A DNA stretch of 64,000 bases from an uncultured Halobacteriales archaeon (GTDB lineage Archaea > Halobacteriota > Halobacteria > Halobacteriales > Hikarchaeaceae). The DNA lies in contig CAZEDI010000001.1 of assembly GCA_964510865.1 (NCBI GenBank), forward strand, positions 2,297 to 66,296. The letters run 5' to 3'. A program made the position numbers and the translations under genes. This document shows, piece after piece, positions 8,191 to 40,051 of the stretch (within the stretch, counting starts at the first letter, position 1; each line of letters starts with the position of its first letter). The notes under the pieces were generated by a model, which saw nothing but the letters and a program-made list of their open reading frames with translations, was not told the origin of the DNA and made no database searches.

Positions 8191-9831
8191 ATGGCTGTTG
8201 ACGTGCGGGACGAGCTTCGACGGAGCATCACGCCACCATATGTCCTTCCGCGGAGCCACCTAGTCTGGCTCGGCTCTGGCTTGGTCGTTGGGGCCCTTGT
8301 CGGGGTCTCGTACCTTCTCACACATCCGTATCCCGCCTATGGAGCGGGCCTGTACCTCGAGATAGCTGAACAGATTCGTGTCCATGGATATAGACTGCCC
8401 CCACGGATCCCCCACTACACAGATGGAGGAATCCCGTTTGCCTATCCGCCACTCTTATTTTATGTCACGGCACTCATCCTGGACTCGACAGGAATCGGTG
8501 CCATCACATATGCACGTGTTGTCCCCGTGATTTTCACTGTCGTCTACCTCGTGCCATACTATTATGCGGCCAGGGAACTGCTCGGTTCTCGTCCGAAGGC
8601 CGGTGTCGCGACTATTATACTCGCGACGGCTCCACCAGCACTACAGTGGCACCTCTCGGCAGGTGGGATTATCCGGGCTGGTGCATTCCTGCTCGCTATC
8701 ACTGGCATCTATACTGGGACGAAGCTCTTCAGCAATGGTGAACGGATGTGGATCGTTCCCTCGGCAATTTTATTTGGTCTCACTATTCTTTCTCATCCTG
8801 TCTATGCCCTCTTCTTCGCGACAACATACCTCGTCCTGTACCTCGTGTTGGACCATTCGATCAAGGGATTTCTCTCGGGTGCAGTAGTCGCACTCGGAGG
8901 AGTACTTATCGCGTTGCCCTGGATCTTGCATGTCGGGCAGCTCCACGGGTTCGACGTGTTCACCGCTGCTGCAGGAACACACAGCGGAATTGGTGGCGGG
9001 TTCCAGGTCGAACAGGTGCGCTCGGCTCTCGATGCAGATCCGAAAATCATCTTGTATGCGATCGGCATTCTCGGTGGGGTCTACCTCTTCTACAAACGTC
9101 GACCACTCCTTCCAGTTTGGGTCGTAGTTCTCGTGTACGTCGTTGGGAAAGGCCGATTCTATGTCCTTCCGGGGGCGATGATGGCAGCAATCTTGCTCCT
9201 TGATGTAATCGCACCCAGGCTCAGGCATCAGTCTCTCCGAGGCCGGCATGTCGGACCCGTTCTTGCGGCAGGGGCGATCATGTTTGTTGCGCTCGCGGCA
9301 GGCACGGGTTTGTTATTCGCAACGGGAACACTCCAGACACACGGTTCGACTGCGACGCAACCATCGTTTATGGACGACGCGGATCGTGATGCCATGGTCT
9401 GGGTCCGACAGAACGTCGATTCCGGTGCGGATTTTGTCGTTCTCGGTGATGCGGCGGAGTGGTTTCCTCTCCTCGCCGAGCGAACGATCCTCCTTGGACC
9501 GTGGGGTGTGGAATGGGTCTCATCCGAGGCGTATTGGCAACAGCTAACCCGGTATCGGGCACTCTCGCACTGTGAAACAGCCACATGTATCACCCGAGGG
9601 CTGGCCGAAGCTGGCGTTTCACCGGATTACGTGTATGTCCCCACGGGGCGATACACGGTACGGGGGTTTGTCCGGCACCAAGCTTCAGGGATGAAAGCAT
9701 CTCTCCACCTGTCAGATCGGTACCGACTAGTCTTCCAAAACGAGGGTGTGCTCGTGTTCGAGGTTCTCGAGGAATCCTCACCCCCTGCGTCGGCACTCCT
9801 GCCTAGGTATCCTCTCGCGGCCGACTGCTGA
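8191..9831 (+). CDS. GT-C fold (ArnT/GT39-like) membrane glycosyltransferase
   Basis: Polytopic protein with IPFAYPPL and EWFP...RTILL.PWG.EW motifs. ATG at 8191 follows GAGGT. Confidence 0.7.
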   Translation: MAVDVRDELRRSITPPYVLPRSHLVWLGSGLVVGALVGVSYLLTHPYPAYGAGLYLEIAEQIRVHGYRLPPRIPHYTDGGIPFAYPPLLFYVTALILDSTGIGAITYARVVPVIFTVVYLVPYYYAARELLGSRPKAGVATIILATAPPALQWHLSAGGIIRAGAFLLAITGIYTGTKLFSNGERMWIVPSAILFGLTILSHPVYALFFATTYLVLYLVLDHSIKGFLSGAVVALGGVLIALPWILHVGQLHGFDVFTAAAGTHSGIGGGFQVEQVRSALDADPKIILYAIGILGGVYLFYKRRPLLPVWVVVLVYVVGKGRFYVLPGAMMAAILLLDVIAPRLRHQSLRGRHVGPVLAAGAIMFVALAAGTGLLFATGTLQTHGSTATQPSFMDDADRDAMVWVRQNVDSGADFVVLGDAAEWFPLLAERTILLGPWGVEWVSSEAYWQQLTRYRALSHCETATCITRGLAEAGVSPDYVYVPTGRYTVRGFVRHQASGMKASLHLSDRYRLVFQNEGVLVFEVLEESSPPASALLPRYPLAADC

Positions 9832-36546: not shown

Positions 36547-38325
36547 CTACCGAAGTGCGTTTAACCTGAACTCGAACGCGACGACTGGTACCTCGAGCCC
36601 ATGCTCGACGAGAACCTCGGGATGAATCTCGCCGATAACGCCCACGTGGGCACCGTCGATCACGATATCGGCGACACGTCCATCCAAGAACGTCGGGTGT
36701 TCGGACGCTGGAGTCTCGAGGTCTGCATCGAACCGCCGACAAAGGGCTTGCAAGCGTGCCTTCATATCCTCGTAGGATGCGTCGTGCCGTGCCAGCGCCG
36801 CTGCCACGGTCCGCCACTCGGCGACGTTCGTATTCTCCGTGTGATCCTCACGGGCCACGAGCCCAATCTCCGCAAGATCTTGCGGATAGGCACGATGGGT
36901 ATTGTTCGACAAGACGGTGAGAATCGATGGAAGTGCCCACGTCCTGACGATCTCATACTCCTCGGAGTAGGGTTCGGTGATCCTGACAGGCTTGCCCGTC
37001 CCGACAGTATCACCAGTACCCCAGGGTGGTCGGGTCGGCGTCCCATCATCCGGCGCGAGGCGCATCGTATCGAAGGTCCCGGCTTCGCTGACCAGGTGAA
37101 AGTTCAGCACGTCTTCGAAGCCAAGCCCCACGAGCAGCTCTCGGACCGCTCGCTCGTGGCGCGCGCGTTCGTGTCGACTACCGACGGTCGAGACGTCGGG
37201 ATAGCGCGGGTCCAGTTCGTTGAATCCGAATGCGCGCCCCACATCATCCACGAGGTCGACCGGGTGGAGGACATCTACGCGATATGGGGGAATGCGCACG
37301 TCATATGCGATCTCGTCATCGCCGACCTCCTTCGAGGTTGCATCAAGCCCCGAACGCTCGAAGAGGTCGATTGCGTCCTCTGGGTCGAGGTCAATTCCGA
37401 GGATAGTTTCGATGCTGCGATGGTCGACCGTTTTTTCATCCACGGACAGCTCAGGACGCTGCAGCTCATGGCCCTCGTCCGGGGAAATCGCGTCATCAGC
37501 GTACTGAACCTCGACAGCTTCGACCTGGCCACCACGGGCATCGAGAGCGTAACAGACGATCGTGAGCATCTTGTCGATCGTCCATTGATCGGTACCGGTC
37601 ATCTCGATGAAGAGGTCCCGCGAATCCGTCGAAACTTCGGTCCGGCGACCGTTGATCACTGGCGGGAAGGAGAAGAGCCCGAGGTCGTCATAAATCGCGG
37701 GAAGACGCTCATAGCCGGCCACAATCGGGGCGTACTCATCGCCTATCGGATGGCGTTCGAGAACCTCCCCCGGTGTCATCTCCTCGTCCGAATCGAGTGG
37801 GACGAACGTATCCTCGGAAGGCTCTAGCCCGGTATAGCGGATCGACTTCTCCCGTGCACCCTCCCCTGCACCTGGTGCTCCCTTGAGCATCGTCTGGTCG
37901 TGGACGCCGTTGGCGCCCTTCACCCGTGCTCTCCCCATCGTCGCATGCAGCTTCTCCTGGAGCTGGATCAACGACTCTAAACTCCGCTCGTCGAGGTCGA
38001 GCCCCCTGACAACCGCGCCCGTGACGTATGGACGCTGTGTGGGGACGGATTCGTCGACATATATCGTCCAGTCCGGGTCCGTGACCATGGGACGGTAGAC
38101 GCCTCGGTCGTCACCGTACTGGTAGCGAAGCGAGCGAGCCACTCCCTCGACGGAGAGGCGATCGAGCCTGTCCGGTTCGAACTCGAACTGGAGTTCGCCG
38201 TCCTCCGTGTCACCTTCGAACTCGAGTCCAAGGGCAAAGAGGTCGGACTTCAGCTGATCCTCACTCTTGTCCTCATGACCGATAAGCCGACGGAGTTCGT
38301 CCGGGTCGACGTCGACCGTCGGCAT
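36547..38325 (-). CDS. pheT: Phenylalanyl-tRNA synthetase beta subunit
   Basis: PDRLDRLSVEG.AR, LIQLQEKLH, FPPVIN, D.LHPVDL.DDV, GEIHPEVL. Confidence 0.97.
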   Translation of the reverse strand: MPTVDVDPDELRRLIGHEDKSEDQLKSDLFALGLEFEGDTEDGELQFEFEPDRLDRLSVEGVARSLRYQYGDDRGVYRPMVTDPDWTIYVDESVPTQRPYVTGAVVRGLDLDERSLESLIQLQEKLHATMGRARVKGANGVHDQTMLKGAPGAGEGAREKSIRYTGLEPSEDTFVPLDSDEEMTPGEVLERHPIGDEYAPIVAGYERLPAIYDDLGLFSFPPVINGRRTEVSTDSRDLFIEMTGTDQWTIDKMLTIVCYALDARGGQVEAVEVQYADDAISPDEGHELQRPELSVDEKTVDHRSIETILGIDLDPEDAIDLFERSGLDATSKEVGDDEIAYDVRIPPYRVDVLHPVDLVDDVGRAFGFNELDPRYPDVSTVGSRHERARHERAVRELLVGLGFEDVLNFHLVSEAGTFDTMRLAPDDGTPTRPPWGTGDTVGTGKPVRITEPYSEEYEIVRTWALPSILTVLSNNTHRAYPQDLAEIGLVAREDHTENTNVAEWRTVAAALARHDASYEDMKARLQALCRRFDADLETPASEHPTFLDGRVADIVIDGAHVGVIGEIHPEVLVEHGLEVPVVAFEFRLNALR

Positions 38326-39827
38326 TAGTACGTCACCTCCTCTGTCCGCAAATACTCGAGATCGACGAGCGTGCCATGGACGTCTCGGATGTCTTCTGCT
38401 CCAGTGACGAGCATCATGAGCCGTTCGAGGGCGAGCCCCCAGGCCATCACATCGGCATCGACGTCGAGCGGCTCTAGCATCTCCGGGCGAAAGATCCCCG
38501 AGTTCCCGACTTCGATCAGCTCGTCCGTCTCGGGGTGGGTCCCGAAGAGTTCAAAGCTCGGCTCCGTATAGGGATTATACGTCGGCTTGAACCGCAAGTC
38601 TGTAATGCCGAAGTGTTCGTAAAATTCGGTGAACGTTCCCATCAGATCACGGACTGAGAGGTCGTCAGCCATCACCCACCCTTCGATCTGGAAGAACTCG
38701 AGTAAGTGTGTCGCGTCGATCTCGTCGTTACGATAGGCTTTCTCGACGGAGAAGAATCGCCGAGGTGGCTCCAGCTCGCCGAGCGCCTCACCAGCGAGGT
38801 GGCGGGCAGATAGCGACGTCGTGTGACCCCTGAGATCGATCTGGCGGGCCATCTCTTCGCCCCACGGGGAGTGGTATCCATCGCCGTCAGGACCGACTCC
38901 CTCCCTATGCGCGGATTCGACCCGTTCGACCAGCCCTTCCGGGAGCTCCTGCATCCGGGGAACCTTGAGTGCGAACTGATCCCAGTGTGTCCGTGCAGGA
39001 TGGTCCTGGGGCATGAACAGGCAGTCGTTGATCCAGAATTCCGCGTCCGCGTGTGGACCCTCCATTTCCTCAAAACCCATGCCGACGAGAACGTCTTTCA
39101 CGCGTTCTGCCATCCGCCGGAGTGGATGGGTGCTCCCGCCGTGCATGATTTCGGCGTCCGCGGCGACATTATAGGCAGCGTAGTCTGTCGTGTCCCACGA
39201 GCCACTCGTTAGGGCCTCGGGAGTCACTCGGTCAACTTGCTCGCGAACTTCGATCCCTTCCATGAGTGCCGTCACACCGTCGTCGGTGAGGGTTGCGGAT
39301 CGAGTCGTTTGCTCGGTACGTTCGATAAGCTCGCGTCGCTCAACGTGCTCCAGGACGTCCTCGTCGGCGGGCTCACCGGAACGAACCGCCTCAAGGGCGC
39401 GTGCGTCTGGATCCTCGTCGGGATGTCTCTCTGGATTCGCGGTAATCTCGCCCCGCTCGATCTCCCCATACTCCTTTCGGGCGTAGTTCGCCAGTGCGAT
39501 GTCGACCTGATCACCGTCGAGTCCTGCCTCGTCGATAGCATCACCAAGGGGGACCGGCTCCGACTCCCCACCGAGTTCGAGCGTGGCCCGGTAGAGTCTA
39601 ACCTCGGGAAGCCCGGTTTCGGCGTATTCGGTACCCTCCCCCGTGAGTGAGATATCCAACGCGACCCCTTCTTGGAGTGCGATGAGGCCCGCTTCCTCCA
39701 GCGCGAAGAGTGCACCGGTGACTGTCTCGGGCGGGAGCTCCGTTTCGTCGGCGAGCTGTTCGACTGACATCGATTCGGTCGCGCTGGCCGTCTCGAGTAT
39801 GGCGGCCTGCGCCTGTGGGAGTTGCAT
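38325..39827 (-). CDS. pheS: Phenylalanyl-tRNA synthetase alpha subunit (archaeal)
   Basis: QDHPAR, LRGHTT, YRNDEIDATHL.EF.Q, YNPYTEPS, GNSG.FRPEM, WGLALERL. Confidence 0.97.
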   Translation of the reverse strand: MQLPQAQAAILETASATESMSVEQLADETELPPETVTGALFALEEAGLIALQEGVALDISLTGEGTEYAETGLPEVRLYRATLELGGESEPVPLGDAIDEAGLDGDQVDIALANYARKEYGEIERGEITANPERHPDEDPDARALEAVRSGEPADEDVLEHVERRELIERTEQTTRSATLTDDGVTALMEGIEVREQVDRVTPEALTSGSWDTTDYAAYNVAADAEIMHGGSTHPLRRMAERVKDVLVGMGFEEMEGPHADAEFWINDCLFMPQDHPARTHWDQFALKVPRMQELPEGLVERVESAHREGVGPDGDGYHSPWGEEMARQIDLRGHTTSLSARHLAGEALGELEPPRRFFSVEKAYRNDEIDATHLLEFFQIEGWVMADDLSVRDLMGTFTEFYEHFGITDLRFKPTYNPYTEPSFELFGTHPETDELIEVGNSGIFRPEMLEPLDVDADVMAWGLALERLMMLVTGAEDIRDVHGTLVDLEYLRTEEVTY

Positions 39828-39934
39828 AGGTTGTTGTCCGTGTTCGTGTCGTGACTGCAGTTAGCCCTTGCGAGTCCATAGCGCCAACGAAGGCGGTTTC
39901 ACCCTCCGACCGCCGGAGACGTCCACCGCCCGAT

Positions 39935-40021
39935 TCAGCTGAAAACGAAAAATCCGAATCCCAGAAAACACTCACGATCAGGCCCATCGACACAGCTCGC
40001 ATGGCGGGATTCGGGTGCCAT
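39935..40021 (-). CDS. Putative Phe-rich leader peptide (uORF) of pheST: MAPESRHASCVDGPDRECFLGFGFFVFS
   Basis: Hand-translated. ATG at 40021, TGA at 39937-39935, 5 Phe among the last 10 codons, ends 107 nt before the pheS ATG. Confidence 0.7.
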   Translation of the reverse strand: MAPESRHASCVDGPDRECFLGFGFFVFS

Positions 40022-40043: not shown

Positions 40044-40051
40044 AATAAAAA
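40044..40051 (-). promoter_or_regulatory. TATA-like box (TTTTTATT) of the Phe-leader/pheST transcript
   Basis: Lies at -30..-23 from the uORF ATG, the spacing expected for a leaderless haloarchaeal mRNA. Confidence 0.55.

Follow-up and report, generated by a model that had tools for sequence, protein, structure and literature searches.

Why should a short open reading frame (ORF) that ends in a run of Phe codons stand ahead of the genes for phenylalanyl-tRNA synthetase in an archaeon? We asked this of pheS and pheT in a 64,000-nt stretch of DNA from an uncultured Halobacteriales archaeon of the Hikarchaeaceae (assembly GCA_964510865.1, contig CAZEDI010000001.1, positions 2,297 to 66,296 of the forward strand); this whole stretch is called the window, and all coordinates of the pheS leader are window positions on its minus strand. 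Leader-peptide attenuation is a textbook bacterial mechanism that, to our knowledge, has not been shown in archaea, where transcription is brought to an end at U-tracts, aided by a CPSF73-like factor, and not at hairpin terminators. Comparison with related loci identified a leader ahead of pheST that is conserved and almost certainly functional. We propose that this element, the haloarchaeal pheST leader, would act as a cis-regulatory, Phe-sensing unit from the 5' end of the mRNA for pheS and pheT, and we give this proposal, together with the mechanism set out below, an even chance. The loci compared show conservation, covariation, codon bias and spacing; from these we infer the transcription start, the translation of the upstream ORF (uORF), the sensing of Phe, the direction of regulation and the factor that responds.

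Taken by itself, the window makes a weak case for such an element. The leader interval falls between an ORF of 455 amino acids (41445-40078) and pheS (39827-38325). The window leader alone (202 nt) folds no better than its shuffles (z = -0.25), and a perfect stem of at least 9 bp arises in 2.8% of its dinucleotide shuffles. A scan of the leader region against Rfam at E-values up to 10, T-box family included, returned zero matches; a scan for bacterial promoter and terminator patterns, which are not applicable to archaea, was empty. A sequence-only reading of the window had nevertheless singled out several short pairings here, and the strings it quoted lie where it had placed them on the minus strand: CCGAATCCC at 40014-40006 with its perfect complement GGGATTCGG at 39962-39954, CTGAATC at 39938-39932, the palindrome TTCAGCTGAA at 39943-39934, GGCGGT at 39930-39925 and again at 39914-39909, ACCGCC at 39897-39892, and CTCCG (39918-39914) with CGGAG (39908-39904). 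The features of the locus, in the order of transcription, are as follows.

40044-40051, minus strand: TATA-like box TTTTTATT, centred about 26 nt 5' of the uORF start codon, ATG 40021
39935-40021, minus strand: putative leader uORF MAPESRHASCVDGPDRECFLGFGFFVFS (MAPES…GFGFFVFS), 28 codons plus TGA
40006-40014, minus strand: 5' arm of helix P1, CCGAAUCCC (as DNA, CCGAATCCC), in codons 3-6, transcript nt 8-16
39954-39962, minus strand: 3' arm of P1, GGGAUUCGG (as DNA, GGGATTCGG), comprising the third base of Leu20, Gly21, Phe22 and the first two bases of Gly23
39941-39952, minus strand: Phe run TTTTTCGTTTTC, UUU UUC GUU UUC (T5C, then T4C), beginning 1 nt past P1
39935-39937, minus strand: uORF stop codon UGA, 1 codon past the last Phe and 3 nt ahead of P2
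39925-39931, minus strand: 5' arm of helix P2, GGGCGGU, from covariation and RNAalifold
39921-39924, minus strand: 5' strand of the internal loop, GGAC (of YGGAN), with G, G and A (nearly) invariant
39904-39918, minus strand: P3 hairpin CUCCG-GCGGU-CGGAG, whose stem base covaries and whose length and sequence differ among species
39891-39901, minus strand: 3' strand of the internal loop, UGAAA (GAAA invariant), then the 3' arm of P2, CCGCCU, from the alignment and RNAalifold
39855-39867, minus strand: distal motif GGGCUAACUGCAG, 37 nt ahead of the pheS ATG; family consensus GGAACCGCTAACTGAC
38325-39827, minus strand: pheS, 500 amino acids, Pfam tRNA-synt_2d
36547-38325, minus strand: pheT, directly after pheS and overlapping it, assigned by Pfam

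A leader shared by haloarchaeal pheS loci

For comparison we used 80 loci encoding relatives of the window PheS, taken from archaeal contigs with one genome per species and making 81 with the window itself. All 80 were from Halobacteria, with a top identity of 72%. A script that searched upstream of pheS, with a Phe-rich tail as its only criterion, picked up a small uORF in 67 of the 81 loci, and the uORF-bearing loci span Haloarculaceae, Natrialbaceae, Haloferacaceae, Halobacteriaceae and other families. The peptide has the consensus M-[APT]-x-E-[SP]…G-F-G-F-F-F-A-x before its stop codon and is 24-29 codons long in 60 of the 67. A covariance model built on the two helices 3' of the uORF, P2 and P3, added seven loci from outside its seed, in each case at the expected place, where the peptide script had failed, bringing the leader to about 74 of the 81 haloarchaeal pheS loci. 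The model's match in the window (39883-39936, 34.1 bits) was the sole significant one in the 64 kb, all others having E > 2, and the Haloferax volcanii leader, also a non-seed sequence, was detected at 53.8 bits.

The leader varies in extent among these species. Six Halodesulfurarchaeum leaders, placed 34-43 nt ahead of pheS, keep the uORF, P1 and the Phe run and have no P2 or P3; in these short leaders the end of the run, UUCGGGG, pairs with a downstream CCYCGAA. Two leaders from metagenome-assembled genomes (MAGs) or drafts appear frame-shifted, which is a reason for caution. Separately, in the locus of the closest PheS relative, a Halapricum MAG, the uORF stop and P2 are separated by an inserted sequence of some 85 nt (about 2305-2395 of locus L001) that resembles a miniature inverted-repeat transposable element and ends in the terminal inverted repeats TAGTGATTACTGTAG and CTACAGTAATCACTA.

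Helices and reading frame

Three mutually compatible helices emerged from the comparison. In P1, transcript nt 8-16 (CCGAAYCCN, codons 3-6) pair with NGGRUUCGG, which ends in the second Gly codon, and at least 8 of the 9 pairs are present in 61 of 67 leaders. The 9-bp pairing of codons 3-6 with 39962-39954, first put forward from the window sequence, is thus a real helix, conserved and with compensatory changes. These link Ser UCC to Gly GGA and Pro CCC to Gly GGG, and at the outermost position C-G, G-C and A-U all occur. In several species the compensatory changes alter both amino acids, as with GAC/GUC in locus L030 (Glu to Asp together with Phe to Val), ACAGUCCCG/CGGGCCUGU in L042, CCGGAUCUC/GAGCUCCGG in L051, and U-A pairs in places where Gly is replaced by Asp. 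In an alignment of 49 sequences that omits only the variable middle of the uORF and the interior of P3, pairing reached 92.5% of cells in P1, where 7 of 9 pairs were compensated, and 76% in P2, with compensation at 8 of 9. None of 500 shuffles matched the observed P1 and P2 values, and controls with slid partners gave 24-54% pairing. RNAalifold, run on unedited uORFs, returned P1 as the sole consensus helix; 3' of the stop codon it returned P2 and the base of P3, with all 10 predicted pairs compensatory.

The same comparison sorted the other pairings of the sequence-only reading. Its CTCCG/CGGAG mini-hairpin is P3, recovered by RNAalifold with 5 of 5 pairs compensatory. It had two GGCGGT copies competing for ACCGCC: the pairing GGGCGG(T):(A)CCGCC is P2 and covaries, but the second GGCGGT falls in the variable P3 loop and is not conserved. 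Neither GATTCGG:CTGAATC across the stop codon nor the 10-nt palindrome (RNA UUCAGCUGAA) is conserved in relatives, and both are window-specific or due to chance. The idea of several competing hairpins found no support: no conserved mutually exclusive pairing was detected.

Two further pairings were considered and one was rejected outright. Pairing of the last sense codons and the stop with the 5' arm of P2 is neat in Natrialbaceae (GCCCGG/CCGGGC) and has a family-wide z of -0.26 against shuffles, and we discarded it. The invariant (C)GAAA is a possible partner of the run's end, UUUC(G): among the flanking positions only the first is enriched for pairing (29 of 35 against 25.4 +/- 1.4 expected, p about 0.02), and the pairing extends no further, leaving it a weak possibility.

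A third candidate pairing bears on the idea of translational attenuation, of the kind described for ermC or mycobacterial Cys uORFs, in which a ribosome stalled on the Phe run would free the pheS start. Leaderless uORFs with cognate codons act in this way in mycobacteria (bioRxiv 10.1101/834739), and in Natrialbaceae RNAalifold pairs the segment a'/Phe run with the pheS AUG (AAGCGAAUG). Over 66 loci, however, the pheS start is less complementary to a'/Phe run than random coding-sequence (CDS) windows are (mean z = +1.4), and the pairing was rejected. The predicted accessibility of the pheS start is also unchanged by ribosome position (0.59 with the leader free, 0.61 with the ribosome stalled and 0.61 with it at the stop), in a region that is A/C-rich and unstructured. 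We regard control of this type as very unlikely.

The spacing of P1 is informative about translation. The offset of its 3' arm from the ATG equals 2 mod 3 in 60 of 61 leaders while taking 10 different values (50, 53, 56, 59, 62, 83 … 125); insertions and deletions in the loop therefore come in threes, reflecting a coding constraint. The end of the frame is equally regular: the last Phe codon lies 1-3 codons from the stop in all 67 leaders, in all 50 that could be aligned P2 begins its pairing -2 to +5 nt from the stop, and 62 of the 67 uORFs have 3-4 Phe among their last 12 codons, compared with 3.6% Phe in PheS. In the window, the stop (TGA 39937-39935) is 107 nt from the pheS ATG. From these patterns we consider the uORF very probably translated.

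Conservation of the peptide is confined to the residues that P1 and the Phe run constrain, and its middle is not conserved, which argues for a regulatory uORF and not a working small protein. A small protein acting in trans, with the RNA pairings incidental, would account for the conserved N-terminus (M-A-x-E-S/P) and C-terminus (GFGFFF). It fits poorly with the way the P1-constrained residues change in pairs that preserve the helix but replace both amino acids (Glu to Asp paired with Phe to Val or Ser; Pro or Ala to Leu paired with Gly to Asp), or with the unconserved middle, and we find it hardly credible.

The Phe run had also been described as the sole U-tract of the window leader, with none past the stop, and this proved general: in each of the 67 leaders, the sequence from the uORF stop to the pheS ATG has no T run longer than three. 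Of the Phe codons, 31% are TTT in the leader as a whole and 41% in the run, compared with 7% in pheS of the same loci. Of the 67 leaders, 48 have a run of at least five T (T5+); CDS codon usage predicts 6.9, and permuting TTT and TTC among the codons of the run gives 38.0 +/- 3.1 (p about 6e-4). The U-run begins 1 nt past P1 in 53 of 61 leaders, the T5+ run ends 6-12 nt after the stem, and in 32 of 45 leaders it is followed by C. In predicted ribosome-free ensembles the Phe run is the most accessible segment (unpaired 0.61, compared with 0.40 overall), and the P1 arms have unpaired probabilities of 0.16-0.24. By codon choice and run length, the Phe run is under selection to be a U-tract.

U-tracts of this form terminate transcription in Haloferax. 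In a reporter, 95% of transcripts terminated at an inserted T5C, their 3' ends falling on the C, and hairpins no more than 10 nt upstream of 3' ends also terminate, one that was tested giving 59% (PMC7237163). The authors of that study expect T stretches to be uncommon within the genes of a G/C-rich genome and detrimental to any gene containing one (PMC7237163). The archaeal factor aCPSF1 uses its KH domains to bind U-tract RNA, which it cleaves (PMC8716108). The window's TTTTTC at 39952-39947 is a T5C with the at least five T of the terminator motif.

The loop between P2 and P3 is an invariant, symmetric 5'-YGGAN/NGAAA-3', which points to a binding partner. P2 and P3 with this loop, possibly joined by the distal motif, could form an operator at which PheRS, tRNA-Phe or an L7Ae-type protein binds in a feedback, with the uORF as an accessory or second input. 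Purine-rich internal loops with tandem sheared G-A pairs are common protein- or ligand-binding sites, and YGGAN/NGAAA, invariant while its flanking helices covary, could form such pairs. P1-P3 have outlasted decay of the Phe run or of the start codon in individual species (below), both the loop and the distal motif contain GAA, the anticodon of tRNA-Phe, and archaeal PheS carries N-terminal winged-helix folds (a weak MarR match). A kink-turn check was mixed: tandem G-A pairs and an A-G/A-U continuation into P2 are compatible with a non-canonical stem, but the register of the covarying P3 pairs gives a symmetric 5x5 loop without a 3-nt bulge and suits a K-turn poorly. The six Halodesulfurarchaeum leaders, which retain the uORF, P1 and Phe run without P2/P3, also speak against an operator as the core of the system, as does the lack of any Rfam match, T-box family included. 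We consider it unlikely as the principal explanation; it is compatible with Phe sensing by the uORF, and a protein- or tRNA-binding role of P2-P3 may coexist with it.

Residues 4-49 of the window PheS (39680-39827) match a MarR-type winged helix weakly (E = 3e-5, just under the Pfam cut-off), and related PheS proteins have MarR_2 and helix-turn-helix (HTH) matches; these are relevant only if PheRS binds its own leader or promoter.

A possible Phe-sensing mechanism

The promoter matches the uORF in its degree of conservation: 59 of 62 related loci have a T-rich box that starts at -30/-29 from the uORF ATG, with (G/C)AACG(C) ahead of it. By its spacing this is a haloarchaeal B recognition element (BRE)/TATA arrangement for a transcript that would begin on the start codon; TTWT and CGAAA are reported as haloarchaeal promoter motifs (PMC4983044). 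The uORF mRNA is thus predicted to be leaderless, with transcription starting at the A of ATG 40021.

On this basis we propose that ribosome position is the sensor. A ribosome would load on the bare 5' end and translate the uORF of about 27 codons, ending G-F-G-F-F-F-x-x-stop. P1 and the T5C would together make a terminator- or pause-like checkpoint that forms only when the first ~60 nt are ribosome-free; a ribosome on these ~60 nt would relieve it, and Phe would be sensed later. With ample Phe-tRNA-Phe, the ribosome would reach the stop, unwind P2 and depart, leaving a naked U-rich linker between P1 and P2, where a factor that reads U-tracts (aCPSF1/FttA or a nuclease) would cut or terminate the transcript. 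With scarce Phe-tRNA-Phe, it would stall on the U-tract and shield it, P2-P3 would stay folded, and the polymerase would proceed into pheST. It seems likely that Phe-tRNA is sensed through ribosome progress in some form. That the output is masking of the U-tract from a factor is a more tentative claim, which we rate somewhat below even.

Timing restricts how such a device could work. A ribosome cannot come closer to the active site of the polymerase than about 26 nt of RNA, as seen in bacterial expressome structures. Intrinsic termination at the T5C therefore cannot depend on decoding of the Phe codons, and because of this spacing masking could make a difference only to a signal that is read on the RNA once the tract has emerged from the polymerase. 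The proposal in the sequence-only reading that a stalled ribosome covers the U-tract is accordingly impossible while the polymerase is on the tract, but plausible for factor-dependent termination or cleavage after the tract has exited.

The same timing argument, by which the Phe codons could not be decoded while the polymerase is on them, favours a simpler scheme that stops at the checkpoint. P1 and T5C would form a terminator that any ribosome translating the 5' arm or loop disrupts, tying pheST to ribosome availability or growth rate, and the Phe codons would be merely the in-frame reading of a U-tract. The geometry of stem then U-run (the 1-nt gap in 53 of 61 leaders, the T5+ end 6-12 nt past the stem) suits such a terminator, as do the strength of T5C and the termination at hairpins upstream of 3' ends in Haloferax (PMC7237163). 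What it leaves unexplained is that the Phe run is always in frame, that TTC is kept in 59% of its codons though TTT would improve the tract, and that the stop is held 1-3 codons past the last Phe with P2 abutting. The gene controlled is, moreover, the Phe-tRNA ligase, and the uORF of the neighbouring Trp ligase gene has Trp codons, which are not U-rich. We think it improbable that the checkpoint is the whole of the mechanism.

Haloferax volcanii allows comparison with transcript data. Its orthologous leader (locus L081) encodes MVSEPKRGARASEPTTDGFGVFFLTA, 26 codons that start 211 nt ahead of pheS (ATG 2790, Phe run 2853-2861, stop 2868-2870, pheS ATG 3001; tract string GUUUUCUUUC). A differential RNA-seq (dRNA-seq) study lists, as entry 13 of its Table 2, a 26-amino-acid uORF in the long 5' untranslated region (UTR) of pheS, HVO_2948 (PMC4983044), and the Haloferax sequence agrees with that entry at exactly 26 codons and 211 nt. 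The study found no second start site at this gene and listed the uORF without interpretation; it judged long structured 5' UTRs untypical of haloarchaea, whose mRNAs are mostly leaderless (PMC4983044). In the supplements of the Haloferax dRNA-seq and processing-site studies the pheS gene is not mentioned.

Several observations weigh against the proposed sensing and masking. The sequence-only reading had looked to 3' ends in or just after the leader and to compensatory changes in the stems: the latter are present, but the Haloferax Term-seq tables consulted, from standard growth, contain no 3' end in the pheS leader, and one 3' end lies 823 nt past the HVO_2948 stop codon, within pheT. The Haloferax Phe run is only T4C-T3C, and 19 of the 67 leaders have no T5+ run. 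Halorhabdus amylolytica (L003) retains P1-P3 with a single Phe left, and Halomicrobium katesii (L014) retains them although its ATG has become ACG and its stop is lost. Because these two keep P1-P3 despite the lost Phe codons or frame, the RNA fold may work without Phe decoding. No classical attenuator-type alternative pairing is conserved in the family, and the proposal assigns the YGGAN/NGAAA loop and P3 no role beyond flanking the linker or slowing the polymerase. Masking would further require that aCPSF1 act at internal U-tracts in haloarchaea, with fitting timing.

A probable trpS leader, the distal motif and known systems

Upstream of trpS in the same window is a probable second leader, in which a uORF with Trp codons is joined to a 5' hairpin.

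43321-43312, minus strand: TATA-like box, in the leader element region 43321-43129
ATG 43287 to TAA 43210, minus strand: candidate uORF MPSTSTWPWHANREVDSLAILAGQI, 25 codons with two Trp codons (…TWPW…)
43280-43272 with 43250-43242, minus strand: 5' hairpin enclosing both Trp codons
Minus strand, downstream: second hairpin, with the uORF stop codon near its tip
43183-43175, minus strand: T5C CUCCCUCCGCUUUUUCG (within CCGCTTTTTCG), about 27 nt past the uORF stop and ahead of the TrpRS start

The TrpRS ORF was called at 579 amino acids from ATG 43297 (minus strand), and its homologues align from the MTH… start at ATG 43138; the called start is probably 53 codons too early, and 43138 is the conserved one. 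The extra N-terminus (43297-43139, minus strand) overlaps the Trp uORF region in another frame. Two Halorientalis loci (L005 and L023) encode MAAS[DV]GWRW[RH]WRT… (WRWRW) and a stop at the same position, with T4C, and the Haloferax dRNA-seq study also lists a 23-amino-acid uORF before a TrpRS gene (PMC4983044). The comparison covers three or four sequences only and is a lead, not a result. A Trp uORF before trpS beside a Phe uORF before pheS argues that the codons are read as codons. One might then envisage a family of haloarchaeal aminoacyl-tRNA synthetase (aaRS) leaders, for Phe at pheST and Trp at trpS, built on leaderless uORFs with a hairpin closing their 5' ends; a single-stranded U-tract exposed in the nascent RNA would be the signal for termination or cleavage, read by aCPSF1/FttA and hidden for read-through, under a stalled ribosome in pheS and by an RNA arm in trpS; we offer this as possible rather than probable. 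As an observation on its own, the 3' arm of the first trpS hairpin is also complementary to the U-tract region.

No element of the leader region is kept more widely than the distal motif (GGGCTAACTGCAG at 39867-39855 of the window), which is present even in seven loci without a leader within 260 nt (L004, L013, L019, L034, L040, L043 and L073). Considered as an RNA hairpin, it has no conserved closing stem. Its CTAAC starts 29-50 nt 5' of the pheS ATG and never nearer, the minimum leaving 24-25 nt, a residual spacing close to that after the T-rich box of the leader promoter, and AAC-CG-CTAAC resembles AAC-G-CTTTT. On the simplest reading it is possibly a promoter or operator proximal to pheS; the promoter version is opposed by the lack of a second pheS start site in Haloferax (PMC4983044).

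Two other features of the window were recorded. The 455-amino-acid ORF between trpS and the pheS leader (41445-40078, minus strand) has no Pfam match. A small ORF at 8804 on the plus strand, MPSSSRQHTSSCTSCWTIRSRDFSRVQ, contains a pair of Cys in a four-residue span and follows a strong TATA-like sequence, TTTTATTT, at leaderless spacing, which may be chance.

How, then, does the pheST leader compare with systems already described? The E. coli pheST attenuator, with its pheM leader peptide, and those of trp, his and pheA use ribosome position as the sensor and a stem followed by a U-run as the output, and the haloarchaeal leader likewise has a presumed ribosome-position sensor and a stem then a U-run. 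It differs in that its mRNA is predicted to be leaderless, in that its only U-tract consists of the sensor codons inside the ORF, 1 nt past a helix that folds back on the 5' end of the same ORF, and in having no terminator hairpin with U-tract 3' of the ORF. It also shows no conserved 1:2/2:3/3:4 alternative pairing and has no sequence or Rfam relationship to the bacterial attenuators. In the tna operon of E. coli, a ribosome stalled on tnaC hides the rut site at which Rho loads, giving read-through. If masking holds, a stalled ribosome on the Phe run would similarly hide the site of a termination factor, but the proposed factor is aCPSF1/FttA on a U-tract, and the stall would come from a shortage of charged tRNA and not from a nascent peptide with free Trp.

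T-boxes and the thrS operator, which read tRNA charging state or bind the enzyme, are likewise found in leaders of aaRS genes; the GAA triplets and the UGGA-like loop of the haloarchaeal leader are a superficial resemblance. A T-box was considered and rejected: there is no Rfam match and no specifier-loop architecture, and the loop is YGGA, but a tRNA-Phe ending in ACCA (we take the haloarchaeal discriminator to be A73) needs UGGU.

Closer in their setting are the polycysteine small ORFs (sORFs) of mycobacteria (Canestrari et al., bioRxiv 10.1101/834739), which also place a leaderless first sORF with a run of cognate codons ahead of the genes concerned; there the ribosome-binding site is sequestered in a structure until a stalled ribosome opens it, whereas the pheS leader shows no such pairing. 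With the T5C terminators of Haloferax (Berkemer et al. 2020, PMC7237163) it shares a tract that is mostly T5C and a hairpin no more than 10 nt upstream, a placement seen at many of the mapped 3' ends, but its tract lies within a presumed translated ORF, and the operon that this ORF heads is essential.

A full-text literature search turned up no report of a leader or attenuator specific to an amino acid in archaea, and the sole mention of a pheS uORF that it found is the uninterpreted table entry in PMC4983044. If true, the mechanism would be the first ribosome-mediated attenuation in Archaea, dependent on a factor, with sensor codons that coincide with the strongest known haloarchaeal terminator motif. 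The pheS leader, conserved and covarying across the class, makes a test case for archaeal transcription-translation coupling, for factor-dependent termination and for feedback of tRNA charging on synthetase levels, and Haloferax volcanii (HVO_2948) is genetically tractable, with dRNA-seq, Term-seq and Ribo-seq data in existence. Set beside the systems above, its logic, that of a leader-peptide sensor, is a known one; what appears new is the architecture, a predicted leaderless ORF closed by its own 5' hairpin, in which the sensor codons themselves are the terminator motif and no alternative hairpins are involved.

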